Source: Lachnospiraceae bacterium (GTDB lineage: Bacteria > Bacillota > Clostridia > Lachnospirales > Lachnospiraceae). Taken from it: a DNA stretch of 57,482 nucleotides. Location of the stretch: contig JAGAQX010000151.1 of the NCBI GenBank assembly GCA_017622535.1, positions 1 through 57,482 on the forward strand, given 5' to 3'. The position numbers were made by a program, and so were the translations under genes. The notes below the pieces were generated by a model. That model saw nothing but the letters and a program-made list of their open reading frames with translations. It was not told where the DNA came from and ran no database searches. Within the stretch, counting starts at the first letter, position 1. Every line of letters starts with the position of its first letter. This document shows positions 25,390-46,051 of the stretch, piece by piece.

Positions 25390-25406
25390 ATATCCCTCAA
25401 ACTCTT

Positions 25407-26483: not shown

Positions 26484-26566
26484 CCTGCATCCCCCAATAA
26501 AATATTTGCATATTATTATACCAGTTTTCTCTATTGTGTATCAAGTGAATTCAGGAAACTCCTCCA

Positions 26567-27607: not shown

Positions 27608-27945
27608 TTGATACCTCCTAATTACCATCCATACTTTTCTAAATCTAGTTATATATTAGTCATTGAACAATATAATTGCCCCTGGTTTCATTCGCCAATT
27701 TTCTATGTATAATGTGCTATCAAAATTTAGCACTATTTTGTAATTATATCAGATACTAAGAAAATTGTATCTAATATTTGATAAAATATGCTCTTAAGTA
27801 TTACCTTTTGAATCAAAATTGATTGCCAAAAATTGCTTACAATGTTATGGTGTATCTATTGTTATTAAATAACAACCATTCAGAGATGCCTTCAATAGTG
27901 CTTACTCTGAATAATGAACAGTACAAATGAAGAGAGGCTAGAATA

Positions 27946-29475: not shown

Positions 29476-29554
29476 AGGTTCAAAAAAACGATTCACGATT
29501 CAGAAACGACTTGAAAATATATAAAATATCTATACTAAGGAGGACTCTATCTTT

Positions 29555-30361
29555 ATGAATAACGAAAAGAAAAGACATATTCGTTTATTACTTATCAGCT
29601 TATTATTTGCAGCAATATTTATAGGTGCCGCAGCCTATCTTGTAATCACACATCGTGGAACAGAGGCTGCTACAGACACGATTGTAAGTATCACTAAAAT
29701 TCTAGCGCTAATCGGTGTATTCTTTTTGGTATTGGCATTTGGACACGTCGTACCCGCCTTTGTCACCTTAAAAAAACGAGAAGACGGTAAGCCGGTAGCA
29801 GAAGGCAGCGGTATCTTCAGCGAAAAAAAGATGCAAGATGCATTAGGAAACTATATTCCAGACGGAGAGACATTACTTGCCGGTATTCATGCTGTTGGAA
29901 AAGAATCTTCTGTGACATGCGTATTCGAAAACTGTGTGCTTACGGAGGACGCATTACTTGCCAACGAGAATGGCAACACCGTGTCAGTAAGCAAATCCAA
30001 ATACTCCACATATGACCTGTACATCGGCATTACCCAGAACTGTTTCATTGTAGCCGATTGTGAAACTTACCGCTATTACTATGAATTTGACAAAGAGCCT
30101 AATACTGATACAACAGATATTCAGACTGTAACCGAAGATATTCAGTTAAGAGATATTGGCAAATGCTTCTCATTAACAGATATCCAAAGCTTCGAGATGA
30201 AGAATGGGTTTGCTGGTTCCATCAACTGTATGATCAAGTTGAAAAACGGAGGCTACTTCAAGCTTCTACTTCCAAAAATGGGGGGATTAGGCGGTGGTAT
30301 GCCACGCCATGAAGAATATAGAGATGCGATTGTGAAACGCTTGAACGAATGTAATGCATAA
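29555..30361 (+). CDS. Hypothetical two-TM membrane protein
   Basis: A GGAGG RBS precedes the start. Two N-terminal TM helices are followed by a soluble C-terminal domain. No family was recognised. Confidence 0.65.
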   Translation: MNNEKKRHIRLLLISLLFAAIFIGAAAYLVITHRGTEAATDTIVSITKILALIGVFFLVLAFGHVVPAFVTLKKREDGKPVAEGSGIFSEKKMQDALGNYIPDGETLLAGIHAVGKESSVTCVFENCVLTEDALLANENGNTVSVSKSKYSTYDLYIGITQNCFIVADCETYRYYYEFDKEPNTDTTDIQTVTEDIQLRDIGKCFSLTDIQSFEMKNGFAGSINCMIKLKNGGYFKLLLPKMGGLGGGMPRHEEYRDAIVKRLNECNA

Positions 30362-30393
30362 AAGCTCTCAAATAACCTAGATACATAATGATA

Positions 30394-30433
30394 AGCCCCA
30401 CATTTTACTCATCACAAAGTAAAATGTGGGGCT
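30394..30433. terminator. Bidirectional terminator hairpin between convergent genes
   Basis: A perfect 15-bp stem forms between agccccacattttac and gtaaaatgtggggct, with a 10-nt loop. Confidence 0.6.
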
Positions 30434-30495
30434 CTATTATTATCATTTATCCAATTGTTTGAACCAAATACATTGGTACATCAAATATACTTACC

Positions 30496-32319
30496 TTACT
30501 TCCACCATTCCTTTTCCTCTTCTTCGGAATCCAAAACTACAGTGACATTCGCCCCTAAATCTGACCCTTGGGAAATCGCATTTTGTCCGCACCACACAAT
30601 TTCGAACTGTGACAACTGCTGTAGTGGACGCAAATCTGTCACATAGTTGTTGGTAATATCTAGTTTCTTCAAATTTGGCAGGCTCTCAACAAAGGAAATA
30701 TTGATAAGCTTGTTCCCTTGCAGATACAACTCCTCAAGATTGCCAAATTTCTTTACCACATCGATGTTATCAACCAATTCCACATCATCATAATCTACAT
30801 AAGTAAATGCACCATCATACTGCACCACAATATTTTCCCAAAGGCGTAATCGATTCATATGTAATACCTTCAAGTTTGTGTGCTCAGGAATCGCATCAAA
30901 ATTCATCCCAAAGCTACAATCATTAATATTAATCTCTTCCAAGCTTGCAATCGAAAAAATAGCTTCCACATTTCCATATACAGTTATACCACTCATATCT
31001 AACACCTTAAGCTTGGACAAACTCGTTAACATATTCAAATTATCCAAATCACCATACACACTGCCAATTTGTAAATACTCTAAATTCTGCAACGAAGCAA
31101 AGACATCAAAGGTACTGCAATCCGCCCCTCTTAAATACAATTTTTTTAATTCAGTCAAAGATTGCATAAAAGAAATATCGGATACACCTGCGATAGACAA
31201 TGTATGTAACTTTGTCCAGTTATTTGCATCAGGCATTTGCGCTTTACTTCCCACTTCCAATGTCAATTCTTCTAATCCACTCAAAGAGCTTAACGCACTA
31301 TAATCAGATATTTCTCCATTATCCTGCAGGATAACCGTCTTTAATGATGTTTTCCCCTCTAATGCCGAAATATCAATTACGATGGTATTCTCCAAAGAAA
31401 GCTCTTGTAAATTAGACATCTTTTCTACAAAGGAAATATCCTTAAGCTGTTCTGTCTCGAGATGTAAATTTTCCAGTTGCTTCAAGGAATGCAAAACACC
31501 AAAATCTGTAATTGCATCACCATTTACTATCTCTAATGTTTTCAAATTGGTAAGAGCGCTAATTGCATTCAAATCTACCAAATCATAGTCATCGATATGC
31601 AGATACTCCAATTTTGTAAATGCATCCACCCCATCTAATGTTTCTGCATCAAAGCATCCGTATATCTTTAGCTTATCCGGATTTGGCAGGCTAGACGCCA
31701 AATCTTTTGGTGTATTCCGGCACCACACTTCTTCTAGCGAGTTTAATTGTTCCAATGCCACTTGAGGAATGGTCTCTGTGGCAAAATGAAGCTTTGTAAG
31801 ATTCGGGAAATTTTTCAAATCTCCCATATCACAATACAAAGAGTCTTCCAGCTGTATCTGCTTGTTTTCACCATCGTTTCTGCTGTATTCTACGACATAA
31901 CAACCATTCTCATAATAAGCATATATCGAAGTTAACTCCTCTAATTCTTCCTCTGCAACATCATCTACTGAAGTACCATAGATTTCCTGTACAAGGGTTT
32001 TAAAGAATTCAGAGCGAAACTTCTCTTCTTGTACTTCTGTCACAACTGATGAAGAACGGTTATTATTGGTTGAATAACTTTCACGAATTGACACCACTAA
32101 GAACACCAATAACAGAATTACGATGATGGCAAACACACTAGCCAACAGACAACCCTCTTGTGATGAGGAAGATGATGATTCATGTATATGAATCTCTTTA
32201 GGTTCATCTCTATCAATCAAATATATCGCATCACAATGTGGGCATCGGGCTCTTTCTCTGTCAATCTGCTCTAATGCACCACCACAATTTTCACATTCCA
32301 TTTCAATTAGTTTAATCAT
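30496..32319 (-). CDS. Zinc-ribbon / single-TM / leucine-rich-repeat (internalin-like LRR) protein
   Basis: The N-terminus is CENCGG..17..CPHCDAIY, followed by a TM helix (CLLASVFAIIVILLLVFLVV). About 15 repeats of roughly 22 aa follow (LxxLxxLxLxxNxIxDISxL). Confidence 0.75.
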   Translation of the reverse strand: MIKLIEMECENCGGALEQIDRERARCPHCDAIYLIDRDEPKEIHIHESSSSSSQEGCLLASVFAIIVILLLVFLVVSIRESYSTNNNRSSSVVTEVQEEKFRSEFFKTLVQEIYGTSVDDVAEEELEELTSIYAYYENGCYVVEYSRNDGENKQIQLEDSLYCDMGDLKNFPNLTKLHFATETIPQVALEQLNSLEEVWCRNTPKDLASSLPNPDKLKIYGCFDAETLDGVDAFTKLEYLHIDDYDLVDLNAISALTNLKTLEIVNGDAITDFGVLHSLKQLENLHLETEQLKDISFVEKMSNLQELSLENTIVIDISALEGKTSLKTVILQDNGEISDYSALSSLSGLEELTLEVGSKAQMPDANNWTKLHTLSIAGVSDISFMQSLTELKKLYLRGADCSTFDVFASLQNLEYLQIGSVYGDLDNLNMLTSLSKLKVLDMSGITVYGNVEAIFSIASLEEININDCSFGMNFDAIPEHTNLKVLHMNRLRLWENIVVQYDGAFTYVDYDDVELVDNIDVVKKFGNLEELYLQGNKLINISFVESLPNLKKLDITNNYVTDLRPLQQLSQFEIVWCGQNAISQGSDLGANVTVVLDSEEEEKEWWK

Positions 32320-32627
32320 ATATTTTTCCTCTACTTATATAATAAGTTTCTTTTTCCTTATATTATTGTCAATTTATCATTTTGAATCTATATTGTCAAT
32401 GAATGCATATATCATTGTCACCACCTAAAACAAGCGTTAAAAACATATACCGAAATGCTCAAAAACCTTATAATTCCTTGTCTTCTAGGTTGACACAATA
32501 CTAAAGAAAGTATTATTATGTTCATAGTACAGTTATTTCATTAAAAACGAATAATACGATGATTCTTTTATTAAAAACAAATTATCAACTGTTCACAAAA
32601 ACACTTTTTTAATGAGGAGGAAAGAGC

Positions 32628-34202
32628 ATGATTACATTACAAAAGAACAAACGATTAGCTGTAGGCTTATTACTAGCAATTCTATTGTTAGTTTCTGTAT
32701 GTGCAACACATCCTGTTCACGCAGCTTCTACAACAGATATCGCAGTTGGCGGCCAGCAATACTACTTAACCAGCGTAAAATATCCTGGACGAGCAGTTAA
32801 CATGTATGTCGATTCTACTGCCGCTATTACAAATAAGACTCCCGTCAATTTGTACGCATTGGACAAAAGCACAACACAGCGCTTTACTTTTGTTAAAAAC
32901 ACCAAGGGAAACTACCTAATGATTCCTTATGGCAGTAAATATACTGTTAATGTTTCTGCATTGCAAGCTGGTACAGCAGTATTTGCTTGGCAAAATAAAG
33001 CCGTTAACAATGAATACTTCATTATCGAAAAAACTAGCGACGGATATTACACCATGCGAATGGAAAATGCTACCGGACTATACTTAACAGCAGACTCTAA
33101 TTCTAAGTTGACGCTACGAGCTAAGGCTGCTGACAACTCACAGAAATTTGCATTCCATCCTTATCCTGAAACTACACCGGAAACGGATGCTGCTACAGAC
33201 ACTGCTACCGATGCTGCAAATGACGCAGCAAACGTTACATCCTTCTTCACAGAGGGAAATCAGTATTACTTCACAAGTGTTAAATATAGTGGAAGAGCCA
33301 TTAATATGTCTGTAAACAAAAATTCCGCTATCAAAAACAACACAAAGGTAAATTTATATGCCCTTGATAAAAGTGAAACTCAACGTTTCACCTTCAAAAA
33401 GAATAGTGCTGGTCAATATTTAATGGTTCCATCAGGAACATCTTATACAGTAAATGTAAACAAACTCAGCGCTGGTTGTAAGGTAATCGCCTATAAAAAC
33501 CAAGCTAAAAATAATGAGTATTTGATTGTTGAAAGAACAGCTGAAGGATATTATATGTTCCGATTAGCTAACAAGCCAAGCCTGTATTTAACAGCTACTT
33601 CAAAGAACACTCTTACATTCAAGAAAAAAACCTCAGGTACATCCCAACAATTTAAGGGTGTAGATTATTCTATCGAAAGCACAATAGTTAATATCACAAA
33701 GAACCTAGAAACATCATCTCTTACACTAGGTGTTAAGCATCTTATGCAGACTGATAAACGTTGGAAAAAAATCTCTTATGATCCTAGAGATAAAAACGCT
33801 ACTATTGGTACTTATGGCTGTCTTGTAACTAGTATGACAATGGTATACAACTATAGACACAATACTACTTATACACCAGTTACTTACGCAAAAAAGAGAA
33901 TGAAATTCGATGGCAACGGATATGCTAATGGTGGGGATTACAAAAAGCTAAAAAAAGTCACACCTTTCAGTTGTAAAACTATAAAGAAATATATTGATTC
34001 GGGTTATCCTCTCATTATATTCGGTAGAACCAAAAAGAATGCTGGTGCTACACATTATGCCGTAGTTTATGGCTACACAAATGGTGCCACAAGCGCCAAG
34101 TACTGTAAGCTTTACGATCCAGCTTCTAAAAAGAGAACAACCGTTTCACATTTCTTAAAGACATACAAACACAACGGTAAGCTTTATATTCTAAAAGATT
34201 AA
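32628..34202 (+). CDS. Secreted protein with two ricin-type beta-trefoil-like repeats and a C-terminal papain/C39-like cysteine peptidase domain
   Basis: It has a signal peptide and an internal duplication (aa ~35-180 versus ~205-345, with repeated YYLTSVKY..GRA.NM..., TQRFTF and NNEY.I.E motifs). The C-terminus carries GTYGCLVTSMTMV (Cys) and ATHYAVVYGY (His). Confidence 0.55.
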   Translation: MITLQKNKRLAVGLLLAILLLVSVCATHPVHAASTTDIAVGGQQYYLTSVKYPGRAVNMYVDSTAAITNKTPVNLYALDKSTTQRFTFVKNTKGNYLMIPYGSKYTVNVSALQAGTAVFAWQNKAVNNEYFIIEKTSDGYYTMRMENATGLYLTADSNSKLTLRAKAADNSQKFAFHPYPETTPETDAATDTATDAANDAANVTSFFTEGNQYYFTSVKYSGRAINMSVNKNSAIKNNTKVNLYALDKSETQRFTFKKNSAGQYLMVPSGTSYTVNVNKLSAGCKVIAYKNQAKNNEYLIVERTAEGYYMFRLANKPSLYLTATSKNTLTFKKKTSGTSQQFKGVDYSIESTIVNITKNLETSSLTLGVKHLMQTDKRWKKISYDPRDKNATIGTYGCLVTSMTMVYNYRHNTTYTPVTYAKKRMKFDGNGYANGGDYKKLKKVTPFSCKTIKKYIDSGYPLIIFGRTKKNAGATHYAVVYGYTNGATSAKYCKLYDPASKKRTTVSHFLKTYKHNGKLYILKD

Positions 34203-34224
34203 TACATAATAGAATATTAACTGT

Positions 34225-34266
34225 AAATAGGCAGATGTTCAAAAATTGAACATCTGCCTATTTTTT
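34225..34266 (+). terminator. Rho-independent terminator after the ricin/peptidase gene
   Basis: A perfect 17-bp stem forms between aaataggcagatgttca and tgaacatctgcctattt, followed by TTTTTT. Confidence 0.85.
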
Positions 34267-34305
34267 CATCAACTTCAATTTACCCCCACTCTTGACAAAG
34301 AGCCC

Positions 34306-34475
34306 AAAAAACTCCTCGTACATCATTACGACATACGAGGAGTTTGTTTAACTAATTGATATTCAATTCAACCGATTACGGTGTATTACTTATCATTGAT
34401 TGCAGCCTGTGTGGTCTAAAGTCGTTGGATATAAAGTTATGTAAACTTGTTTGCTATTCAAAACACTGTTACATA
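34306..34475 (-). repeat. Copy 1 (minimal form) of the ppdK-end composite element
   Basis: It comprises a terminator hairpin (34309-34345), a conserved arm aactaattgatattcaattcaaccgatta, a 7-nt filler, the 24-nt core 34386-34409, and a shared upstream arm running to about 34475. It lacks the roughly 174-nt hairpin module. Confidence 0.8.
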
Positions 34476-34555
34476 ACAAAGAATTTAAGCTATCGTAGGA
34501 TAATTATTATTCCCTACCCTGAACAACACTTTTCCCGTTTTAAGGCGGATAATAA

Positions 34556-34885
34556 TTATATAATCTGCTCTCTGCTTTGCCGATTATGTAAAAATCTACG
34601 AATCTCCATTACTTTTCCTAACTGCTCATCATTTATAACAACATAATAAACCACATAGTTTTTTACATAAATCCGATAATACGGATAACGTCTTTCTTTA
34701 ACAGAATAATATGGTTCAAATGATTCTGCATTGGGTTGACGTTCCAATATAGCACTTTCCACTCTATCTAATAAATTATTAGCTGCTTGTGGATTATTCA
34801 GCGTCTCCGCTATATATGTTGCTACATTTTCCAAATCTTCATAAAATTTAGGCAAATATCTAATCACATATGCCATATCAGCCAT
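34556..34885 (-). CDS. Type II toxin, RelE/ParE family
   Basis: The protein is 109 aa and matches the ParE-like pattern (YVIRYLPKFYEDLENVATYI, YRIYVKNYVVYYVV). It overlaps the upstream antitoxin stop. Confidence 0.75.
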   Translation of the reverse strand: MADMAYVIRYLPKFYEDLENVATYIAETLNNPQAANNLLDRVESAILERQPNAESFEPYYSVKERRYPYYRIYVKNYVVYYVVINDEQLGKVMEIRRFLHNRQSREQII

Positions 34886-35135
34886 TAATCCGCCTCCTCA
34901 AATTAGAGAATACTTCTTCATGTGTATATCTTGTAGAATCTTCTTCTGCTAATCGATCAGCTTCATCTAATGCCACTTCAACACCATCGGTCAGTTTTGA
35001 ATATGCCTCTAAACTCAACACCACCATTTTTCCATAACCATTTTTAGTAAGATAAACTGGCTGCCCTTCATCCACAAGCTTTTCAATATCCGCGAATTTA
35101 TTTCTCAAATCAGAGACTGGTTTTATTTGTATCAT
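34878..35135 (-). CDS. Type II antitoxin, Phd/YefM family
   Basis: The sequence MIQIKPVSDLRNKFADIEKLVDEGQPVYLTKNGYGKMVVLSLEAY is typical of the family. The start is set at ATG 35135, preceded by GGAG; the track ORF extends to 35153. Confidence 0.75.
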   Translation of the reverse strand: MIQIKPVSDLRNKFADIEKLVDEGQPVYLTKNGYGKMVVLSLEAYSKLTDGVEVALDEADRLAEEDSTRYTHEEVFSNLRRRING

Positions 35136-35232
35136 AGTAATCACTCCTATCATAATTTTATCAAAATTTTATCATTACAATTATTATATCCAATCACAAG
35201 ATGTATTACAAGTATAATATGTCTCCATTACA

Positions 35233-35267
35233 TAAAAAATAACAGGAACATTACTATTCCTGTTATT
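35233..35267 (-). terminator. Rho-independent terminator after the small ORF / DUF4230 operon
   Basis: A 10-bp stem forms between aataacagga and tcctgttatt, followed on the minus strand by TTTTT. Confidence 0.7.
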
Positions 35268-35274
35268 CTATATC

Positions 35275-35454
35275 CTAAAACAAACCTTTGGCTATTACTT
35301 CTTTTTGTCTCTGTTGCATGAAGAAGTTACTAATTAATTCGACAAATTCTTGTTCTTCCTCTGATTCAGCATTTAACGCTACTTCTACTGTATCTTCGAT
35401 ATCCATTTCTTTGCACACTTTATAGAATTCTTTAAATGATTCTGTAAGAGTCAT
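35275..35454 (-). CDS. Small acidic protein (59 aa), absent from the ORF track (below its length cutoff)
   Basis: The ATG at 35454 is preceded by GGAGGT 7 nt upstream. The product reads MTLTESFKEFYKVCKEMDIEDTVEVALNAESEEEQEFVELISNFFMQQRQKEVIAKGLF, with TAG at 35277-35275. A terminator follows immediately. Confidence 0.55.
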   Translation of the reverse strand: MTLTESFKEFYKVCKEMDIEDTVEVALNAESEEEQEFVELISNFFMQQRQKEVIAKGLF

Positions 35455-35488
35455 GGTGTACCTCCATTCACAAAATTAATCTTAACAT

Positions 35489-36115
35489 TTATTTTGCTTC
35501 ATCGTTTATTTTTGTTGTTTCTTCGCCATCTTCATATACCCATGTAATCTTATACTCAACACCTGAAACTTCTCCTAATCGGTCAATATAATTTTTAATC
35601 AAATCCTTTGCTCGACTCTGCGCACTCAATAGTAATGCAGAATTATTTTTTACACTCTCCTCCATTTCTTTTTGTGCATTTTCAATTGCCGCCGTTTGAT
35701 CCTCTGCAGTAATTTTATTACTATTCAACCCATCTGCCGATGATATATAAGATTCTTCATTCAAAGTTGATTCTTCCACACTAATATTCATTAATTCAGC
35801 ATCAGGAATCGAAATAATAACATTAGTCCCATCCATCTCCATGGTCACTTTTGACATATCAACTCCAACTTTGGCTACACCGGTGTACTCTATCCAAAAT
35901 TTTCTTTCTTTTTCTCCCCAATGTGCAATCCCCTCACCTGCTGTTTTTACCGATTTTGCCACATTGTGATAATAACATTCCAATGTCGCCAAATTGCATA
36001 TTGACCTAATTTGTGTTATCTCTGGTTCATTTATAACCTTTTTTTCTGCCGAACAAGAACACATAATTAATACTGTCAATAACATAATACCTATTATAAA
36101 TATTTTTTTAATCAT
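35489..36115 (-). CDS. DUF4230-like lipoprotein
   Basis: It has a signal/lipobox (LLTVLIMCSCS) and the pattern I..IRSICNLATLECYYHNV...GVAKVGVDMSKV...ISIPDAEL, which I associate with DUF4230. Confidence 0.55.
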   Translation of the reverse strand: MIKKIFIIGIMLLTVLIMCSCSAEKKVINEPEITQIRSICNLATLECYYHNVAKSVKTAGEGIAHWGEKERKFWIEYTGVAKVGVDMSKVTMEMDGTNVIISIPDAELMNISVEESTLNEESYISSADGLNSNKITAEDQTAAIENAQKEMEESVKNNSALLLSAQSRAKDLIKNYIDRLGEVSGVEYKITWVYEDGEETTKINDEAK

Positions 36116-36127
36116 TTCCTCATCCCC

Positions 36128-36739
36128 TTACTTTACTTCAACTTCGTATTCTTCATCTACTTGTTGAATCCATGGTGTAAACAAAGCTTTTACTGATTCT
36201 ATCGCGTTTGTTTTAGCCATTTTAATCAAATCAGTTTCATTCTTGACGCGATTTTCTAAATCTTGTTTGCAAGCTTTATATGCCTCTTGCGAAACCGTTT
36301 CCGTTTCATATTTGTCTTTCATAAAAATGTAATCCAATGTTCCCATATTTACATCTGTCACATGTATCTCTATTTCCGGAAGTGTTATTACAATCTTCTT
36401 TTGCTCTTCATCTGGAACAATTTTAATTTTTTTAAAATCAATTCCTGCTGTCACAACTCCTTCATATGCAACATAGTATTTTATGGTTGTCCCATCTTCG
36501 TCATAAACTTTTGTAGTAGCATTATATGTATAATCTACTGTTGACAATTCGTTAATCTCAACTATCTTTTCCAACGAAGATTTTGAAATTGTACTTACTT
36601 GTCCTTCTTTGTTATTAAATACTACCATTTTCATATAAACACCAATTGCGATAAGCAGTATTATTGCAATAAATACCGAAACTGCTATAATTTTCTTTTT
36701 GATTTTTGTTAAATTAATTTTTTTATCTTCTCTTTCCAT
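36128..36739 (-). CDS. DUF4230-like membrane-anchored protein
   Basis: The likely start is ATG 36739 (MEREDKK...), preceded by AAAGGAG; the track ORF extends to 36892. An N-terminal TM is followed by INELSTVDYTYNAT...GVVTAGIDFKKIKI...ITLPEIEI. Confidence 0.55.
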   Translation of the reverse strand: MEREDKKINLTKIKKKIIAVSVFIAIILLIAIGVYMKMVVFNNKEGQVSTISKSSLEKIVEINELSTVDYTYNATTKVYDEDGTTIKYYVAYEGVVTAGIDFKKIKIVPDEEQKKIVITLPEIEIHVTDVNMGTLDYIFMKDKYETETVSQEAYKACKQDLENRVKNETDLIKMAKTNAIESVKALFTPWIQQVDEEYEVEVK

Positions 36740-36945
36740 ATATATTTTCTTCTCCTTTGTATATCGTATAGTAGGAACACTTTTCCTCATAATATAATTC
36801 GTGTTTTTCACAAAAACAAATCTAAGAACAACGGATTTGTCATATAACCGCCAACATTTGTAACCAATATATATCCTGATTAAACATACCATATTATTCT
36901 ATCATAAATAGAATTCATTGTCATTTTTTCAGTATGATTTTTCAC

Positions 36946-36986
36946 ACACAAAAAGGAAGCTAATTGCCCTGCAAACAATTAGCTTC
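36946..36986 (-). terminator. Rho-independent terminator after the acidic lipoprotein gene
   Basis: A perfect 11-bp stem forms between gaagctaattg and caattagcttc, followed on the minus strand by CTTTTTGTG. Confidence 0.75.
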
Positions 36987-37092
36987 TCTACTCAAAAAAA
37001 GTCGAACCCTACCATATCAAAAATCCTTATATTCAAGTCATCTTTATTATTGTAGTAATTCTACATCTTGTCCTATATCGCACAAATCCATT

Positions 37093-38241
37093 TTATAAAG
37101 ATGCATCTAGAAGTTTTTTGTTTATTCTTGTCATAACTTCAAGATAATAAGCAGCCTCCTTATCGTTCATTTCATCATCTTCCATTTCTTCTAATTTCTT
37201 CATGGCTTCCGCATACTTTTCCATATAATCCAAGTAGTCCGCCATCATACTCAGTGTATCTGAGGATTCTGCATACTTCTCCATAAATGCGATATACTCG
37301 TCAAAGAATTCTTCATAACTATCCATCGCCGCCTTAAATTCTGGTCTCATTCCATCTATTAACTCATCACTTGTGCTTTCTGAGGACTCCGTACTTTCTT
37401 CTTTAGTTTCTTCCGAACTCTCAGTTTCGTCATCCTGAATCTCTTCCGTTACTTCTTTTTCATCTTCCTTATTTTCGCCCTGAATTTCTTTTATTTTCCG
37501 TTCCATAACTTCCCTTAATTTCTGTGCTACATCTTCTGCATCTTTGTTATCTGCGTAGAATTGACTAGATGCCTCTGACCAAATCACATAACACAAAGCA
37601 CTGGCATCGGACCACTCTTTATACACACTAGAAGTTGTATCCGACCACATTTCATATGCACCACCAGAAGCATCAGACCACTCTTTATACTCTAATTCTT
37701 CATACGCACCTGAAATGATACCATCGTATATGTCATCATACATATCATCCAATATACCATCATATACATCATCATAATAATGATATAAAACACCATCGTA
37801 TATCTCGTCATAATAATCATCAATGGCATCTTCCAACGCCTCCTTATCGTCTTTATGTTGTTCAAATGCTTCTTCAAAATAATTAACAGAAGATTCCGCA
37901 AGGCTCGAAAACACATCCTGTGATTCAACAACCATCTTTTCACAAAATGTATTCATTTCTTCCTTATGTTCAACATATCCATCATAAGAATTATCCATTG
38001 AGTCCACAATCGATGTATATTCTTCTTGAAATCCTATAATCATATCATAAATTGGCGTTTGCAGTTGCCCCAACTCTCCCATCTCCAATTTTTCTTCTGC
38101 TGTTTCTTCTTGTTTCGTTTTCTCCACCAAAGTCTCTGTTACATTCGATTCATTCTTGCCGACATCTGCCATTCTATTACATGCCACCATTGAAATTGAC
38201 ATACAAAATGTAATTATAATTATTGATAATTTTTTCATCAT
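37093..38241 (-). CDS. Highly acidic lipoprotein with Y-D-D-[IV]-Y-D-G and W-S-D-[AT]-S repeats
   Basis: The lipobox is ISMVAC. The central region reads YDEIYDGVLYHYYDDVYDGILDDMYDDIYDG, then YKEWSDASGGAYEMWSDTTSSVYKEWSDAS. No family was recognised. Confidence 0.65.
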   Translation of the reverse strand: MMKKLSIIIITFCMSISMVACNRMADVGKNESNVTETLVEKTKQEETAEEKLEMGELGQLQTPIYDMIIGFQEEYTSIVDSMDNSYDGYVEHKEEMNTFCEKMVVESQDVFSSLAESSVNYFEEAFEQHKDDKEALEDAIDDYYDEIYDGVLYHYYDDVYDGILDDMYDDIYDGIISGAYEELEYKEWSDASGGAYEMWSDTTSSVYKEWSDASALCYVIWSEASSQFYADNKDAEDVAQKLREVMERKIKEIQGENKEDEKEVTEEIQDDETESSEETKEESTESSESTSDELIDGMRPEFKAAMDSYEEFFDEYIAFMEKYAESSDTLSMMADYLDYMEKYAEAMKKLEEMEDDEMNDKEAAYYLEVMTRINKKLLDASL

Positions 38242-38331
38242 AAATCATCCATCCTCCTTGAATAAGTGTGTTCTCATATCTAATCTTCCGTTCTAAAACC
38301 ATCGATAAGCGCACAGTTGCTAGTTTCTTCA

Positions 38332-38661
38332 TCAAAGTTCTGCTATCATTTTTTCCACTTTAAGAATCAAATCACTGGTCTTTACATTTTTTGACTTTAA
38401 TTCATCAAGTTTTACAATTAAAGCATCCTTTTTGATATCGTTTGTAGCATCAATAATATCTTTAATTTGCCTCACACGATATCCGATATCTTGATAAAAC
38501 CGTATCTGTATCATTCGGTTCACCATATCTTCATTATAAAGCAGATATCCACGTTTCATTTTTGCTGTAGCATGCACTAACCCCTCCTTTTCATAACCTT
38601 GAATTGCTCTTCTGGAAATCCCATATTCTTCATATATTTCCCTTAACGTCCTGTTTCTCAT
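38332..38661 (-). CDS. MerR-family transcriptional regulator (109 aa)
   Basis: It has an N-terminal HTH (TLREIYEEYGISRRAIQGYEKEGLV) and a coiled-coil C-terminus. Confidence 0.75.
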   Translation of the reverse strand: MRNRTLREIYEEYGISRRAIQGYEKEGLVHATAKMKRGYLLYNEDMVNRMIQIRFYQDIGYRVRQIKDIIDATNDIKKDALIVKLDELKSKNVKTSDLILKVEKMIAEL

Positions 38662-38707
38662 TCGCTTACCTCATTTAAACAATGATTAGTTATAGCAATA
38701 TTTTGAA

Positions 38708-38729
38708 ACTGCACGTAACGTGCAGTCAA
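38708..38729 (-). promoter_or_regulatory. Perfect 8-3-8 palindrome overlapping a TTGACT -35 box upstream of merR (candidate operator)
   Basis: The palindrome is actgcacg-taa-cgtgcagt (38708-38726). On the minus strand TTGACT lies at 38729-24 and runs into the palindrome. Confidence 0.4.
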
Positions 38730-38880
38730 CACTGCTCCACTAACAACTGTCGCTATCAAAACAGGACTTGTAAATTTCGCGAATTACATTTATTCTGTTA
38801 TATTCTGGTTAGCAGAAAACCGAATCCTTATATGTACTAGTACTGAATGCAGTATTCCTGTCACCTTGTCATTTATAACA

Positions 38881-39213
38881 AAAACGCCTCGCACATCATT
38901 ACGACATACGAGGAGTTTGTTAAACTAATTGATATTCAATTCAACCGATTATCCACATCGCAAGCACAGCTTGCTCAGTGATGGACAGTCGATATATGAA
39001 AGCGCTGACGCGCATTCTCAACATAAGAGAAGGGCACGTCTCGGAAAGTAAACTTTCCGAAACGCACCCTCTTCTTATGTTACGAAAGTACTTCGTACTT
39101 TCGCATATCTCATTGTTTTCACATCTTACTTATCATTGATTGCAGCCTGTGGGATCTAAAGTCGTTGGATATAAAGTTATGTAAACTTATTTAATATCTA
39201 AAGAACTATTACA
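38881..39213 (-). repeat. Copy 2 (full form) of the ppdK-end composite element
   Basis: It comprises a terminator hairpin (38884-38920), a conserved arm, a 174-nt hairpin module (38952-39125), the 24-nt core (39126-39149), and a shared upstream arm running to about 39213. It lies directly downstream of the MCP gene. Confidence 0.85.
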
Positions 39214-41700
39214 AAAATTAATTCTACGTTCAGTTACAACCATCAAAACCATTTTTATACATTAAATCGCTCAATTAATTCCTTCAAATGGTTAAGACTT
39301 GTCTCGCTCTCACGTAAATGCTCATAACCTTCTAACGTTTTCTGAACTGCATCTTCAGATTTCTCTGCTATCATATTCACTCCACCTGCAGACTCTGTAA
39401 TTGTACGATTCACACCATCCATTGCATCCACGATTTCTACAATCTTACGATTTAATTCAGAAATTTCAGAATATATATGCTGCATTGATTCTGCATAGCT
39501 TTCCGCATCCTTCTCATAACGTTCACCTACTTGACCAAACGTACTATAATCTTCAACCACTGTTTCTTCCAAGAAACTCATAATGACCTGAATACAATCT
39601 GTCATATTAACAACAGCTTCATTGACCTCTTTTACAATTTCACTAATGCCATCTACAGTTTGGAATGTTTGATTAGCAAGTGCGCCAATTTCAGTAGCAA
39701 CTACAGCAAAACCACGACCTGCTTCCCCTGCTCTTGCAGCTTCAATGTTAGCATTCAGTGCCAGTAGATTTGTCTGAGCAGAAATATCACGAATATCATC
39801 AGTCAACTCATTGATCTTCGCAACTACTTTTGATTTTTCAATTGCTTCTTCCGTACGCGTTCTCATATCTGCATAAATAGCCATTGCTTTCTCATTAGAA
39901 GCACTTGTATTATCTCGAAGTTCTCTTGCTCTCGTCATAATTTCTCTCGACTCTTGCTGTTCACGTTCAGAAAGCTCTCGAATTTCCTCTGCATTTGTTT
40001 GGATTGCATCAATATTGCTTACAATCATAGTCGCGCTAGCGGTAGTTTCTTCCATGCCAGAGGCTAGTCCTTGGGTAGTTATAGAATTATCCTCAGAAAT
40101 AGAATTGTTTTCCCTCATTATGTCATCTAAACGCTCCATATTTCCAATCAAATCATCTTTAATACCTTCCATGTTACCTACCAACTCACGCAAAACAGAA
40201 CGCATTTCATTTACCGCCTTTGCCATAACGCCGGTCTCATCACGTTTATTCATCAATTCATCAATTCCTGCAGCTCGTTGAAAATCTAGCTGTGCAGTCT
40301 GTTTAATAATTTCTGTAATTCGTTTAATCGGTTTTGCAATCGTACTTCCTATCAAAACTCCAAGCACAATAGCAATCATCAATCCCAAGGCAAGAAACAT
40401 CAATATTTGACCAGAAAGGGCATTTGCATCAGCCGTAATTTCCTCTAATGGCGCTGTCAATACAAGCTTCATACCATTCTTCAGTTCCACATAAGCTAAG
40501 TATTTTTCCTCACCATTATAGTTATACTGCAGTGTTTTACCTTGATTAGCAGCATCCAATATAAAATCCTTAACAACTGTTAAGTCTCCATCATTATACT
40601 CTGCTAAATCAGTACCAGACTCTATATCTTTATGATACAATACATTACCTGTCGAACTAACCAAAAAGGAATATCCAGTATCAAAGGCAATCGCATCATC
40701 TGCTAAAGACGTCAACTGGCCAAAATCAATATCCATTCCTAGAATTCCTACTGATGTACCATTTTCATAAAGTGGAACCACATAAGAAATCATATAAACA
40801 TTAATATTAGCATTCAAATAAGGGTCCATCCAAAGTGGAGCTTTGTTTGCAACTGGTAGATAATACCAACCCACATGTGCTAAATCAGACGGATCATACA
40901 TACTAAAATCCGTTGGTGTCACACTGTCAAATGCAGACTCCGTATCATTACGAGTCAAAAATATACCAGAAGTTGGTTCTGTAAATTCTGGATTATAACG
41001 GATATATGCTGTAATTGCTCCGTCTGTATGCTCTGCAAAAGTATAAAAATCCTCCAAAAGTCCATTGGTATACTCGCTCACATATTCATTATTATTCTTA
41101 AATGTAGAAAATTCCAACTTTTCCATTGCAATATCGCTGATCGTGTCTACCGATTGCTCAATTCTAGAAATCAAAGCATTAATTTCTTCACCTGTATTTT
41201 CACAGGTTAGCACTAGTTCATTTTCAGCTGCAGCATTCGATAATTCTCTCGTATCAGAAATACTAAGCAAACTGATAATACATGCTGTAATTAAAGAGCA
41301 TATCACAATTGCAACTGTAATTTTCATTCGTATAGATTTCATAGTAAACCCTCCTCACTTTGACATCTTAATAATTATACCACACAATCACACATTAATA
41401 ATATCTTTTTTTTATAAAATTGCATCTTTCTGATAGCCTTTTCAAAAAATCAACCAAAAACTCCTTGCACTTCATTACGAAGCACAAGGAGCTTATTAAA
41501 CTAATTGATATTCAATTCAACCGATTATCCACATCGCAAGCACAGCTTGCTCAGTGATGGACAGTCGATATATGAATGTACTGACGTACTTTCGCCACAC
41601 ATAAAGAAAGCGTATCCAGGAATGCAAGCACTCCTGAATACGCTTCTTTTATGTGTTACGAATGCCTTCCGGCATTCGCATATCTCATTGTTTTCACATC
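39150..41700 (-). mobile_element. Putative inserted cassette B, bounded by core copies 2 and 3 (single MCP gene)
   Basis: The architecture matches cassette A: shared arm, then cargo, then structured module. It is flanked by the 24-nt direct repeats, and no recombinase is encoded. Confidence 0.35.
39255..41342 (-). CDS. Methyl-accepting chemotaxis protein with extracytoplasmic Cache-type sensor and HAMP
   Basis: Two TM helices flank a sensor domain of about 280 aa. A HAMP domain and an MA domain follow, with the tip [30 protein letters not shown]. Confidence 0.88.
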
Positions 41701-41724
41701 TTACTTATCATTGATTGCAGCCTG
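41455..41724 (-). repeat. Copy 3 (full form) of the composite element, forming the 3' end and 3' UTR of ppdK
   Basis: It comprises a terminator hairpin (41461-41491), a conserved arm, a 173-nt hairpin module (41528-41700), and the core 41701-41724. The core here encodes QAAINDK plus TAA of ppdK. Confidence 0.85.
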
Positions 41725-44334
41725 AGCAGCAGCTAATCTAGCGATAGGTACACGGAATGGAGAACATGATACATAGTTCAATCCTACCTTATGGCAGAAC
41801 TCGATTGAAGATGGATCTCCACCGTGCTCACCACAGATACCTAACTTGATATCTGGACGAGTCTTACGTCCCTTCTCTGCAGCCATCTGAACTAACTGGC
41901 CAACACCTGTCTGGTCAAGACGAGCAAATGGATCTGACTCGTAAATCTTAGCCTGGTAGTAAGAATCTAAGAACTTACCAGCATCATCACGAGAGAAACC
42001 GAATGTCATCTGTGTTAAGTCGTTAGTACCGAATGAGAAGAACTCAGCCTCTTCAGCAACCTGGTCAGCTGTAAGAGCAGCACGAGGAATCTCGATCATT
42101 GTACCGATGTGGTACTGGATATCAGAATTCTTCTCAGCCTTAACAGCCTCACAAACCTCAACTACAACATCCTTAACATACTTAAGCTCTTTCTTCTCGC
42201 CTACTAATGGGATCATGATTTCTGGAACGATGTCATAACCCTTCTCAGCCTTAACTTCGATAGCAGCTTCCATAACAGCTCTTGTCTGCATCTTAGCGAT
42301 TTCTGGATATGTTACAGCAAGACGACATCCACGGTGACCCATCATTGGGTTAAACTCATGAAGTGCATCACACTTAGCCTTAACGTCAGCAACTGTAAGA
42401 CCCATATCATCAGCTAATGCCTTGATATCAGCTTCCTCAGTTGGAACGAACTCATGAAGAGGTGGATCCAAGTAACGAACTGTCATTGGACGACCCTCTA
42501 ATGTCTCGTACATAGCCTTGAAGTCAGCCTTCTGGAACTCACCGATTGCCTTAAGAGCCTCTTCTCTAGCTTCTACTGTATCAGAAAGGATCATCTTTCT
42601 GAACTTAGGAATTCTGTCCTCACCAAAGAACATATGCTCTGTACGGCAAAGACCGATACCCTCAGCACCTAACTCAACAGCCTTAGCTGTATCAGCAGGA
42701 GTATCTGCATTTGTACGAACCATTAACTTTCTATACTTATCTGCCCAAGCCATAACACGACCGAAGTCACCACCAATTGATGGCTCTACTGTCTTGATAT
42801 CGCCCTTGTAAATCTTACCTGTTGTACCATCAAGAGAAATGTAATCTCCCTCATGGAATGTGTATCCACCTAACTCGAAGTACTTCTCTTCTTCGTTAAT
42901 CTTAATCTCACCACAACCAGATACACAACATGTACCCATACCACGAGCAACTACAGCAGCGTGTGATGTCATACCACCACGAACTGTTAAGATACCCTGT
43001 GAAGCATGCATACCTTCGATATCTTCTGGAGATGTCTCAAGACGAACTAAGATACATCTCTCGCCACGTCCACCGATACCAGCTTCCTTAGCATCATCAG
43101 CTGTAAAGTAAACCTTACCAGCAGCAGCACCTGGTGAAGCAGGAAGAGCTGAACCAATAACCTCGCCAGCTTTAAGTGCAGCAGCATCGAATGTTGGGTG
43201 AAGTAACTGATCAAGAGACTTAGCCTCGATACGGCAAACTGCCTCTTCCTCTGTAATCTGACCTTCATCTACTAAATCACAAGCAATCTTGATAGCAGCT
43301 GGAGCTGTTCTCTTACCATTACGTGTCTGTAAGAAGTATAACTTACCTTCCTCGATAGTGAACTCCATATCCTGCATATCATGGAAGTGATTCTCAAGCT
43401 TCATAGCTAACTCCATGAACTGAGCGTAGCACTCTGGCATATCCTGCTCTAACTGAGAAATTGGCTGAGGTGTACGAACACCAGCAACTACGTCCTCACC
43501 CTGAGCATTGATTAAGTACTCACCAAAGATACCCTTAGCACCTGTAGATGGGTTACGAGTAAATGCTACACCAGTACCTGATGTCTCACCCTTATTACCG
43601 AATACCATTGTCTGTACGTTAACAGCTGTTCCCCAATCACCAGGGATGTCGTTCATACGACGGTAAACGATAGCACGTGGGTTATCCCAAGAACGGAATA
43701 CAGCCTTAACAGCTCCCATTAACTGATCCTTAGGATCCTGTGGGAATTCCTCACCGTTCATAGCATCTTTGTAAATCGCCTTGAACTGATTAGCTAAATC
43801 CTTTAAGTCATCAGCAGTTAAATCTGTATCATAAGTAACGCCCTTAGCTTCCTTCATCTCATCGATCTTCTTCTCGAAGAATGACTTTGGAACCTCCATA
43901 ACTACGTCAGCGTACATCTGAATAAATCTTCTGTATGAATCGTAAGCAAATCTTGGATTACCAGTCTTCTTAGCAAATCCTTCAACAGCCACGTCATTAA
44001 GACCTAAGTTAAGGATTGTATCCATCATACCAGGCATAGATGCACGAGCACCTGAACGAACTGATACTAATAATGGATCTTCTGTATCACCAAACTTCTT
44101 ACCGTTATATTCCTCTAACCAAGCAATTGCCTCGAAAATCTGCTTCTGAATCTCCTCAGAAATCTGCTTACCCTGGTTATAGTAATCTGTACAAGCCTCT
44201 GTTGTTACTGTGAATCCCTGTGGAATTGGTAAACCTAAGCCAGTCATCTCAGCTAAGTTACATCCCTTACCACCAAGAAGGTTTCTCATTGATGCGTCGC
44301 CTTCTTTAAACAAATAAACCCATTTGTTTGCCAT
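41701..44334 (-). CDS. ppdK: Pyruvate, phosphate dikinase
   Basis: The N-terminus is MANKWVYLFKEGDASMRNLLGGKGCNLAEM and the catalytic His loop is GGMTSHAAVVARGMG. A C-terminal PEP-utilising TIM barrel follows. The start is set at ATG 44334, preceded by AGGAGG; the track ORF extends to 44409. Confidence 0.95.
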   Translation of the reverse strand: MANKWVYLFKEGDASMRNLLGGKGCNLAEMTGLGLPIPQGFTVTTEACTDYYNQGKQISEEIQKQIFEAIAWLEEYNGKKFGDTEDPLLVSVRSGARASMPGMMDTILNLGLNDVAVEGFAKKTGNPRFAYDSYRRFIQMYADVVMEVPKSFFEKKIDEMKEAKGVTYDTDLTADDLKDLANQFKAIYKDAMNGEEFPQDPKDQLMGAVKAVFRSWDNPRAIVYRRMNDIPGDWGTAVNVQTMVFGNKGETSGTGVAFTRNPSTGAKGIFGEYLINAQGEDVVAGVRTPQPISQLEQDMPECYAQFMELAMKLENHFHDMQDMEFTIEEGKLYFLQTRNGKRTAPAAIKIACDLVDEGQITEEEAVCRIEAKSLDQLLHPTFDAAALKAGEVIGSALPASPGAAAGKVYFTADDAKEAGIGGRGERCILVRLETSPEDIEGMHASQGILTVRGGMTSHAAVVARGMGTCCVSGCGEIKINEEEKYFELGGYTFHEGDYISLDGTTGKIYKGDIKTVEPSIGGDFGRVMAWADKYRKLMVRTNADTPADTAKAVELGAEGIGLCRTEHMFFGEDRIPKFRKMILSDTVEAREEALKAIGEFQKADFKAMYETLEGRPMTVRYLDPPLHEFVPTEEADIKALADDMGLTVADVKAKCDALHEFNPMMGHRGCRLAVTYPEIAKMQTRAVMEAAIEVKAEKGYDIVPEIMIPLVGEKKELKYVKDVVVEVCEAVKAEKNSDIQYHIGTMIEIPRAALTADQVAEEAEFFSFGTNDLTQMTFGFSRDDAGKFLDSYYQAKIYESDPFARLDQTGVGQLVQMAAEKGRKTRPDIKLGICGEHGGDPSSIEFCHKVGLNYVSCSPFRVPIARLAAAQAAINDK

Positions 44335-44630
44335 TTGATATATACCTCCTAAGTATTTGATAATTGTACTCGGACAGATTGGAACACCTGTCCACAGTCT
44401 GTTAACCATTATAGCATATAATATAAAAAATTCAAAACCTTTTTTCCGTTTTTTGTTAGTTTTTCTGTGTTTTTTTTAATACACTGATGTATTACATTTT
44501 TTTGCATTATCATATAAGCATCTTATCTTGCAATAAATACCTGATACCAACTTAAATAATTGTTGATATTCTTTCTCCTTGTACATAAAAATTTCGTAAT
44601 TTAATTCCTCTCTATACAAACAAAGAGCGA

Positions 44631-44664
44631 CAAAAAAACTGTCAGACATAAGGTCTGACAGTTT
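44631..44664 (-). terminator. Rho-independent terminator after the NlpC/P60 gene
   Basis: A 12-bp stem forms between aaactgtcagac and gtctgacagttt, followed on the minus strand by TTTTTTTG. Confidence 0.85.
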
Positions 44665-44689
44665 CATAACTCATAATATATTCAATTCA

Positions 44690-46051
44690 TTATTTAACGA
44701 TACGAACTGCTTTATTAATTGGCGAATAATTATAGCTAGAAATCTTAATTCCTGTCTTTGCATTACTAGCATGAACAACCTGTCCACCACCAATATAAAT
44801 GGCAACGTGTCCATAACCATGATAGAACAACAAATCACCTGGCTGTAAACTATCTACGCTCACTTGTCTTCCAGCGCCAGCCTGACTAGCTGCAGTTCTA
44901 GGTAATGAATAACCAAAATGCTTATATACCGATTGAACGAATCCGGAACAATCCGCACCATTTGTTAAGCTTGTACCACCATACACATAAGGATTACCAA
45001 CAAACTGTACTGCGTAATTAGCAATTGCTTGTCCACTTGTACTACTTGATTCCTGCTTAACTGTTTCCTTTGATGTATCTTCCTTCTCTACTTTGACATC
45101 AGTAGATGTAACAGCCTCCTGCTTAGGTGCCTCTGTTGTTGGGGCTTGTGTCGTTGGAGCCTGTGTTGTTGGAGCCTGTGTTGTTGGTGTTTGTGCCGCC
45201 TGTTGCTGAGCTGCTGCCGCCGCTGCTGCTTCTGCTGCCGCCTGTGCTTCTGCTGCTGCCTGTGCTTCTGCTGCTGCCTGTGCTTCTGCTGCTGCAATTG
45301 CCGCCTGCTCTTCTTCGATTGTTATTGCTGTTTCATATACATAATCGATATATACGTAATCACTTGATACATATCCAACCTGCTCTTCATCTAAAGCAAC
45401 TTTAACCCATCCGTTCTCATTACCAAGAATAGTAAATGTAGAACCCTCATCGGTTAATGTTAAAATATCACTCTCGGTTGACTCTTCTGCTCTTACATTC
45501 AATGTTTCTGTAGCAACCTTAGCGACCTGATCACAATTACTCTCAATGTATGCTTCTGCAGCTTCACCAAATAACAAATAATCGTTGTGAACATATCCAT
45601 AAGCATTACCAGATGCAACAACAGACCATTCGTCACCCTTCTCTATAATTGTTCCTACATTACCTCTGTAAAACTTACCTACTACTTCCGCTTCCTCTGA
45701 AGGTTCTGTTCTAATATTCAAAAAACTATCAATATTAGCAACTACTTGATTACTCTCTAACGTTGCCGCCTTCTCTTCGAGCTGACTAGCTTCCTCTTCA
45801 ACATTCTCTACAACAGCTTCTGTTGTTACTTCTGCAACATCTGTAGCTTCTGTAGCCTCTGCTGTAGGTGTAACCATAATACCTTTTGCAATATTCTTAG
45901 AATCCGCTACACTATTCTCAATCGCCTTACTAATAATAGCAGGTGTTTCACTAACCTCATCCTTAACACTAGTTGTATATGAAGTTCCTCCTAACAAAAT
46001 GGACATCATTGCCACTGCTAACATCGAACCTCTAATAATCTTCTTCTTCAT
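44690..46051 (-). CDS. Secreted cell-wall hydrolase: two SH3b domains, an Ala/Gln/Thr-Pro linker, and an NlpC/P60 domain
   Basis: It has a signal peptide and two SH3_3-like segments (LNIRTEPSEEAEVVG, LNVRAEESTESDI). The C-terminus carries DCSGFVQSVY...GHVAIYIGGGQVVHA. Confidence 0.88.
   Translation of the reverse strand: MKKKIIRGSMLAVAMMSILLGGTSYTTSVKDEVSETPAIISKAIENSVADSKNIAKGIMVTPTAEATEATDVAEVTTEAVVENVEEEASQLEEKAATLESNQVVANIDSFLNIRTEPSEEAEVVGKFYRGNVGTIIEKGDEWSVVASGNAYGYVHNDYLLFGEAAEAYIESNCDQVAKVATETLNVRAEESTESDILTLTDEGSTFTILGNENGWVKVALDEEQVGYVSSDYVYIDYVYETAITIEEEQAAIAAAEAQAAAEAQAAAEAQAAAEAAAAAAAQQQAAQTPTTQAPTTQAPTTQAPTTEAPKQEAVTSTDVKVEKEDTSKETVKQESSSTSGQAIANYAVQFVGNPYVYGGTSLTNGADCSGFVQSVYKHFGYSLPRTAASQAGAGRQVSVDSLQPGDLLFYHGYGHVAIYIGGGQVVHASNAKTGIKISSYNYSPINKAVRIVK
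45131..45190 (-). repeat. Imperfect 15-nt tandem repeat x4 (encodes the QAPTT repeats of the P60 linker)
   Basis: The units are ctctgttgttggggc / ttgtgtcgttggagc / ctgtgttgttggagc / ctgtgttgttggtgt. Confidence 0.8.
45231..45296 (-). repeat. 18-nt tandem repeat x3.6 (encodes the AEAQAA repeats of the P60 linker)
   Basis: The unit tctgctgcYgcctgtgct repeats head to tail at 45231, 45249 and 45267. A partial unit spans 45285-45296. Confidence 0.85.

Follow-up and report, generated by a model that had tools for sequence, protein, structure and literature searches.

A candidate RNA hairpin module inserted between ppdK and its terminator in Lachnospiraceae

The ppdK gene of a Lachnospiraceae bacterium (assembly GCA_017622535.1, contig JAGAQX010000151.1, positions 1-57,482 of the forward strand; this whole stretch of 57,482 nucleotides is called the window here) is followed by a hairpin-rich module, located between the stop codon of the gene and an ancestral hairpin and intrinsic terminator of its 3' untranslated region (3'UTR). 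All coordinates are those of the window, and the structure is read on its minus strand, which is the ppdK-sense strand. Copy 3 of the module (allele A) stands immediately 3' of the true ppdK stop codon (41701-41703), and copy 2 (allele B) lies downstream of an MCP gene, where it follows a relic, 24 nt long, of the ppdK tail. At a third place, copy 1, the 7 nt TACACCG (ppdK sense) are found where copies 2 and 3 hold ~172 nt. An earlier note, drawn from the letters of this DNA, had described copies 2 and 3 as two conserved flanks enclosing three hairpins of different sequence and preserved pairing, and recognised no named RNA family in them. The sequences and coordinates were as it described: the copies agree letter for letter in one flank of 47 nt and another of 22 nt, and the three hairpins between these flanks differ in sequence and keep their pairing. 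Rfam 15 likewise gave no family at the gathering threshold for the module, the only window hits at that level being two tRNAs (adjacent genes at 55462-55612, minus strand), and permissive scans returned sub-threshold matches of miRNA precursors to the long hairpin, for example MIR1120 with 33.7 bits against a gathering threshold of 86. Taken with the results below, it is well supported that the module is a real structure, read on one strand and undescribed in Rfam.

We searched a 20-mer from the conserved flank exactly against 185,579 species genomes and obtained three real loci, all in Lachnospiraceae metagenome-assembled genomes (MAGs) with at most two copies each, in a search that would miss divergent members such as the mini-element described below. 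Every copy in those three MAGs adjoins ppdK. One of the four genome-contig matches to the 20-mer, L001, was set aside as a chance match. A 19-mer scan of JGI metagenome contigs gave three chance matches only, in unrelated GC-rich DNA, and nothing matched in viral contigs, PLSDB plasmids or GenBank phages. Exact look-up of the ppdK product of the window, with both start codons, gave no match, so neighbouring proteins and ppdK homologues were used instead, and exact-protein look-ups with the MerR, MCP and near-identical ppdK products led to about 35 further loci (cited by L numbers). From other Lachnospiraceae contigs we assembled an almost gap-free alignment, A2, of ten distinct full module alleles. 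A covariance model of the module, R1, found no copy beyond copies 2 and 3 when run over the window and a sister species. An allele identical to B is present in 10 other contigs, and the known distribution of the module is narrow, a single species-level clade.

In the minus sense, the ~290-nt units that hold the two copies fold at -115.7 and -120.3 kcal/mol (z = -9.4 and -9.8 against dinucleotide shuffles), and 0 of 200 shuffles folded as well as the native units. The RNAalifold consensus of A2 contains the three hairpins that the earlier note had proposed and adds a closing helix, P1 (GAUAU/AUAUC), so that hairpins c, b and a are arranged as a four-way junction (Table 1). P1 is bracketed by the conserved 5' end (GUGAAAACAAUGAG), which supplies one of its sides and is predicted to engage in a long-range pairing with UGU..UCAC, and by the conserved 3' end, which reads CAUAUAUCGACUGUCCAUCAC-UGA-GCAAGC-UGU-GCUUGC-GAU-GUG in the sense strand and holds the other side. 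After the junction, this 3' end forms a small conserved hairpin (GCAAGC-NNN-GCUUGC) with a symmetric UGA/GAU internal loop in which tandem G.A pairs are possible. The sequences of hairpins c, b and a change freely, with pairing retained; hairpin a also keeps its GUCA loop and one mismatch, U.U or A.A, and in L030 it shows the compensatory change GUAC/GUAC to GUGC/GCAC. Hairpin b of copy 2 is a stem of ~29 bp with a 1x1 internal loop.

Table 1. Positions in the window of the module, its parts, ppdK and the repeated ppdK-tail units.
Feature	Position	Strand	Evidence
Module copy 3, allele A, 171 nt	41530..41700	-	covariance-model score 199.9 bits, fold
Module copy 2, allele B, 172 nt	38954..39125	-	covariance-model score 186.4 bits, fold
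Hairpin a	copy 2 38998..39017; copy 3 41574..41593	-	sequence, RNAalifold
Hairpin b	copy 2 39020..39081; copy 3 41597..41656	-	fold, RNAalifold, covariation
Hairpin c	copy 2 39083..39103; copy 3 41659..41678	-	arm comparison, RNAalifold, covariation
Conserved module 3' end	copy 2 38954..38997; copy 3 41530..41573	-	invariant in A2
Conserved module 5' end, sense GAUGUGAAAACAAUGAGAUAUG	copy 2 39104..39125; copy 3 41679..41700	-	A2, RNAalifold
ppdK, 877 aa	41701..44334	-	gene call; 3' end is attB-motif match 41711-41730
Repeat unit U3: last 24 nt of ppdK coding sequence, module A, B hairpin, intrinsic terminator	41456..41724	-	
Repeat unit U2: ~65-nt conserved cassette end, relic 39126-39149, module B, B hairpin, terminator	38880..39216	-	
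Repeat unit U1 (empty): cassette end, relic 34386-34409, TACACCG, B hairpin, terminator	34307..34476	-	

The stems are maintained across the ten alleles, 99.0% of 610 cells being paired compared with 92.2% in shuffles, none of which (0 of 500) reached as high a value. When partner columns were slid by one to three positions, pairing fell to 31-54%. Sixteen pairs have changed on both sides, and the covariation is confined to hairpins a, b and c; in hairpin b alone, both sides changed in 12 of the 27 pairs.

The helices also differ between the strands. Their non-Watson-Crick pairs in A2 are 47 sense G-U cells at 14 sites against one A-C cell at one site, and the sense fold is 6-22 kcal/mol more stable than the antisense fold in 10 of 10 alleles. 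The claim that G-U asymmetry favours a minus-strand structure over a DNA cruciform thus holds beyond the two copies on which it was made. The pair counts behind it, taken by hand, were right in direction and slightly off in their figures: symmetric comparison of arm against arm in stem b gave 24 Watson-Crick, 4 sense G-U and 1 A-C pairs for copy 2 and 24, 3 and 1 for copy 3, for which RNAfold pairs 27 positions, against 25 in the hand count. The same comparison showed the tandem non-canonical pair that had been reported at stem positions 10-11 of both copies, the A-C being one half of it. Inside a lineage, most single-arm polymorphisms still allow a wobble pair on the sense strand. The B hairpin and intrinsic terminators act as RNA, and because the B hairpin and five terminator variants have the same one-sided wobble, with no A-C, they support an RNA-level reading of the module. 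We rejected mutation bias as the source of the asymmetry, as polarised synonymous transitions in ppdK run the opposite way (25 that would make G-U against 74 in the other direction, in a control limited by codon selection and a distant outgroup) and background mutation therefore does not explain the G-U excess. Together these comparisons support a structure that is preserved on the minus, ppdK-sense strand, and speak against a symmetric DNA palindrome.

The earlier note missed several points of context: that the module is an optional insertion, that it sits in att-like repeats, that its alleles are mosaic and carry insertion sequences, and that a related mini-element exists. The module follows the true ppdK stop in the window and in L002, L004, L006, L008, L011, L014, L027, L030 and L031, the empty TACACCG stands there in L005, L025, L026, L028, L029, L033 and L034, and L032 has another short filler. 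L031 (filled) and L033 or L025 (empty) have the downstream cassette and terminator in common and form a near-isogenic pair. In the sister species (96% ppdK protein identity) there is no module; its UTR is short and unrelated, and purE follows 130 nt after ppdK. Because of these empty UTRs, and of the sister species without it, the module is an optional, lineage-restricted insertion replacing 7 nt and not a fixed part of ppdK. Recombination among the alleles is visible as well: L031 joins hairpin c of lineage A to hairpins b and a of lineage B, and L034 has a hybrid hairpin a. The "wholesale covariation" seen between the two window copies must be qualified for this reason. Much of it comes from setting side by side alleles that have diverged, been exchanged horizontally and recombined, and not from compensatory evolution in situ.

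A mini-element of ~90 nt, in the same orientation as the module, is present upstream of ppdK in L025, L026, L027 and L031, after the terminator of the NlpC/P60 gene and before the ppdK promoter. It has a module-like 5' end (GUGUUAACAAUGAG), a homologous 3' end and one hairpin, whose tip (AUGCUUGCAU) is that of hairpin b in lineages A and C, and it aligns with model R1 from end to end with 51-53 bits. In the model alignment its P1 is kept through the compensatory replacement of GAUAU/AUAUC by GCCAA/UUGGC, and in the small 3' hairpin GCAAGC/GCUUGC has become GCAUGC/GCAUGC, a stem A-U turned into U-A, with the UGA/GAU internal loop unchanged. Since the loop is kept while the stem changes, the comparison suggests that it is a recognised feature. 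We looked for a clean empty site for the mini-element and found none. With a one-hairpin version upstream of ppdK in other strains, the module belongs to a small family of mosaic hairpin elements.

The two copies of the module result from repetition of the entire ppdK tail, which recurs as an att-like boundary of two cassettes stacked downstream of the gene. In the ppdK direction a unit opens with the final 24 nt of the coding sequence of the gene (CAGGCTGCAATCAATGATAAGTAA), continues with either the module or the 7-nt filler, and closes with the B hairpin followed by a terminator. U3 is the real end of ppdK; U2 and U1 are relics, and in front of each stands a stretch of ~65 nt that is conserved between the two. 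One MCP gene lies between U3 and U2, and MerR, DUF6591, two DUF4230 and Phd/ParE genes lie between U2 and U1, the MerR-family gene coming after U2. The proposal that the structure is a 3'UTR element of both ppdK and the MCP gene could not be upheld, as copy 2 follows the MCP gene only through the repeated ppdK-tail relic. PvCTn-like conjugative transposons of Bacteroidota are described as having their attB in the 3' end of ppdK (5'-GYSGCNCARGCKGCHRTHGA), with imperfect direct repeats, a regenerated stop codon, and transcription that reads through attL and attR (PMC11005914). The 3' end of ppdK in the window matches that motif at 18 of 20 positions (41711-41730, minus strand), and the relic copies match it only from CAGGCTGCAATCAA onward, each then continuing with TGATAAGTAA, so that homology breaks inside the motif. 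As far as that description goes, the likeness concerns the repeat units and not the hairpin module, which does not figure in it: the window repeats likewise start within the homologous AAQAAI codons of ppdK, are direct and imperfect, and regenerate the stop. The differences are that the hosts are Bacteroidota there and a member of the Lachnospiraceae (Bacillota) here, that the window inserts are small (2-4.5 kb) and carry no integrase, and that the shared segment runs for ~100-270 nt through UTR and terminator, compared with about 20 bp in the PvCTn-like elements (PMC11005914).

Neither between the repeats nor elsewhere in the 57-kb window is an integrase, transposase, HUH, RAYT or recombinase gene encoded. 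Because the relic homology breaks inside the attB motif, the best reading of the three units is that two successive insertions at the ppdK end, by blocks that now lack an integrase, left them as att-type scars, and the ppdK 3' end appears to be in use as an attachment site in a second phylum, Bacillota. Under an attB x attP scheme, the empty U1, farthest from ppdK, would be the original chromosomal tail, and the module-bearing U2 and U3 would have come from incoming elements; the farthest unit is empty in the window, L006, L025, L031 and L033. Reassortment is frequent: the first unit may be A, C or empty with the same MCP cassette, the second B or an A carrying an insertion sequence, and hybrid terminators occur. 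Cassettes bounded solely by empty units also exist (both units in L025 and L033), and the module is thus unnecessary as a recombination site.

We consider the RNA reading of the earlier note to be the best single explanation, although an incomplete one, and give it about even confidence. Whether the module is an undescribed sense-strand RNA element, probably acting on the stability or processing of mRNA 3' ends, is for us an evenly balanced question. Given its position between the stop codon and the UTR hairpin and terminator, it should be transcribed within the 3'UTR. A stack of stable hairpins could block 3' exonucleases or, alternatively, the ~29-bp hairpin b could be an RNase III-type processing site; by either route the module would decide what becomes of the ppdK or cassette transcript and of readthrough into the cassette. 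Its position from stop to terminator, its sense-specific structure and the conserved segment before the terminator are shared with bacterial structured 3'UTR elements and 3'UTR-derived small RNAs, from which it differs in being optional and horizontally exchanged and in matching no Rfam family.

Several observations weigh against this reading. We infer transcription of the module solely from its place between stop codon and terminator, and the mini-element, lying after one terminator and before the ppdK promoter, is less certain to be transcribed at all. Many strains dispense with the module, so any role would be accessory. The A2 alleles amount to about three independent lineages (A, B and C) plus recombinants, and the outer helices are invariant within the module alleles, P1 drawing its sole support from the mini-element. 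The minus strand is G-rich across the whole window, so the ppdK-sense sequence is also the lagging-strand-template sequence. Finally, there are changes that took place in the DNA itself. In L034 three adjacent bases changed at once and made the small hairpin a perfect palindrome, in L002 a partial second module (a tandem unit) is joined through an inverted-duplication junction, and in L004, L037, L039 and L040 an ISL3-family insertion sequence (IS) with a 392-aa transposase sits in an arm of hairpin b with a duplication of ~8 bp. The IS is complete in these contigs (2791-4172 in L004) and in L003, where it has a similar position in hairpin b. These events show that the hairpins also matter as DNA. 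The unit is truncated in L003 and L007, and in the window a solo right inverted repeat of the ISL3 IS (TTACCCCCACTCTTGACAAAGAGCC, 34280-34304) abuts the terminator of copy 1.

Such events keep alive the possibility that selection acts on single-stranded DNA, the module being a small non-autonomous mobile or recombinogenic element, of the REP/BIME or IS200/IS605-derived kind, whose hairpins form on the lagging-strand template and are handled by an enzyme acting in trans. We find this unlikely, if the most serious of the alternatives. Its presence or absence at one site, the related mini-element at a second locus, the mosaic alleles, the template-switch-like changes in L034 and L002, the IS within hairpin b and the G-rich leading-strand character of the sense strand, which makes it the lagging-strand-template sequence, would all be expected of it. 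However, the window encodes no HUH, RAYT or other transposase or recombinase gene, the copies are few, terminal inverted repeats and a target-site duplication are absent, the two loci have no target sequence in common, bona fide terminators show the same asymmetry, and it is typically in RNA motifs that a conserved internal loop of the G.A type adjoins a covarying stem.

Among known kinds of element, the closest to the module is the REP/BIME type of mosaic intergenic hairpin element. Imperfect hairpins with conserved linkers, and a modular make-up in which one or three hairpins have the same ends, recall REP/BIME, BOX and Correia elements, and the transcribed intergenic or 3' location, the presence/absence polymorphism and the attraction of IS insertions are REP/BIME-like too. 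A plausible role in stabilising the 3' ends of mRNA is a further likeness. The module differs from them in having hairpins in one orientation inside one closing helix, as a four-way junction, and not in alternation, and no RAYT, Y1 or HUH transposase, as would be expected for REP/BIME, is encoded in the window. REP/BIME usually exceed 100 copies per genome (PMC2817692), whereas the module has two in the 57-kb window and at most two per MAG by the exact 20-mer; its much longer, 29-bp hypervariable hairpins likewise contrast with the conserved palindrome of 20-40 nt of REP/BIME. As for an IS200/IS605-derived origin, which would lead one to expect subterminal hairpins at either end and insertion 3' of a fixed target of 4-5 nt, the module has only one conserved terminal hairpin, its two loci have no common target (AAGTAA| and TTTTGT|), and the window contains no cognate TnpA.

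Less probable still, and in our view improbable outright, is that the hairpins are functionless DNA palindromes in which template switching within a strand (quasipalindrome correction), along with gene conversion between units, preserves the pairing mechanically. The one-step 3-nt change of L034, which yields a perfect palindrome, and the junction in L002 are what such a process would leave, and hybrid terminators and mosaic alleles speak of frequent recombination. Template switching predicts perfect complementarity without strand bias, though, and the alleles have 14 sense G-U sites against 1; most single-arm polymorphisms inside a lineage suit sense-strand wobble, the loop, mismatch and internal loop are conserved, and the flanks are identical even though the stems have diverged.

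Very improbably, the module could itself be a cassette-integration site, either an attC-like folded site or an attP arm bound by an integrase or excisionase, as hinted by its presence in every module-bearing att-like repeat on the predicted incoming-element side, by the resemblance of hairpins a and c to paired inverted binding sites and by the MerR-family gene after U2; empty units bound cassettes equally well (U1 of the window, both units in L025 and L033), by reading there are no RYYYAAC/GTTRRRY cores, double-stranded binding sites would give no strand asymmetry, and no integrase is nearby.

We also compared the module with other defined kinds of sequence. The resemblance to an integron attC lies in sequence-variable, structure-conserved imperfect inverted repeats at the 3' ends of cassettes and in strand-specific folding; the module differs by its three hairpins and closing helix in place of a single bulged hairpin and by the lack of an integron integrase, and attC was rejected as, by reading, no R''(RYYYAAC)/R'(GTTRRRY) cores bracket the stems and several cassette boundaries have no module. 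The end of a miniature inverted-repeat transposable element, which the earlier note had named as an explanation that would undo its own, was rejected because the ends GATGTGAAAACAATG and GCTTGCGATGTG are not inverted repeats and the empty site (TACACCG) has no target duplication. A terminator scan flags the inner part of hairpin b; we discarded this, since the supposed tail (CUCUUAUGUU or CUUUAUGUGU) has few U residues and takes part in the pairing of the outer stem, and the real terminators are ~70 nt downstream. A retron msr-msd was rejected (the downstream genes are MCP and MerR, and no reverse transcriptase is present), as were an sso-type origin, whose defining features are absent from the module by reading, a hammerhead-like core around CUGAG...GAU, in which position 8 is C and not G and there is no GAAA, and a small open reading frame, the sole one in the module to start with ATG (MRYANAGRHS* in A, MRYAKVRSTFVT* in B), which lacks both a ribosome-binding site and conservation. 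Alleles A and B look as if the stems of a and c had changed places, but the GUCA loop and the mismatch stay at a, which speaks against a simple inversion of c-b-a. Another conformer, in which the 5' arm of c would pair with the 3' arm of a, fits A and B, effectively two alleles, and is broken in the recombinants L031 and L034. The 7-nt complementarity between CUGUCCA of the module and the ppdK leader hairpin is at chance level.

Should the module act as RNA, uncultured Lachnospiraceae of gut and rumen would have yielded a structured motif not described before, together with a natural case of strains that differ solely in whether a 3'UTR structure follows ppdK, a central metabolic gene with high expression, and in which allele of it they carry. 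L031 and L033 already provide a matched pair of alleles, one filled and one empty. A further proposal, that small ppdK-targeting elements bring their own RNA module to replace the host 3'UTR, and form a new RNA family, with a four-way junction whose arms evolve freely and a small hairpin that keeps its tandem G.A, controlling the decay or processing of a very highly expressed host mRNA together with the readthrough into their cargo, is speculative and we doubt it; if true, a mobile element would have driven the exchange of a host 3'UTR. The surroundings are no less useful than the module itself, since the ppdK 3' end is an apparent insertion hot spot in a Bacillota lineage and gathers small integrase-less cassettes that include toxin-antitoxin and immunity-family genes.

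Around these units, ~18 kb of accessory DNA (23274-41700) separates purE (22785-23273) from ppdK, a gap of 130 nt in the sister species, and its gene content varies among strains whose ppdK genes are 96-99% identical in nucleotides. The cassette array downstream of ppdK (the window, L025, L031, L033, L034 and L007) is built of blocks ending in a conserved sequence of ~40-65 nt plus a ppdK-tail copy, with no integrase inside the array. Across strains the cargo comprises MCP, MerR/DUF6591/DUF4230/Phd-ParE, SMI1_KNR4 with a zeta-toxin-like protein, DUF4304, CyanoTRADDas_TM and others. SMI1_KNR4 and DUF4304 are typical families of immunity proteins of polymorphic toxin systems, and the content of the array is therefore reminiscent of an immunity or toxin-antitoxin island. 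A Phd/YefM-ParE type II toxin-antitoxin pair (34556-35153, minus strand) occupies the distal end of the second cassette in the window. The integrase found in L005 and L009 is that of a separate integrative mobilisable element (L005 9976-14486, L009 6343-8192; tyrosine integrase, NikA-like protein, TnpV, MobC, relaxase), whose insertion cut short the second of the two DUF4230 genes in the MerR cassette.

On the other side of ppdK, its leader (44335-44420, minus strand) contains a hairpin, GGACAG...CUGUCC, just downstream of a TTGAAT/TATAAT promoter. The hairpin is found in L018 and L025-L034 and is conserved even in the sister species, so it may be a ppdK leader element. The region upstream of ppdK (44420-44690, minus strand) is hypervariable in comparison with L025, L028, L030, L034 and L002, with differing terminators of the NlpC/P60 gene and hairpin-bearing inserts among strains. 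Short tandem coding repeats occur in the DUF6591 gene (37720-37821) and in the NlpC/P60 gene (45206-45304); both are probably low-complexity protein segments.

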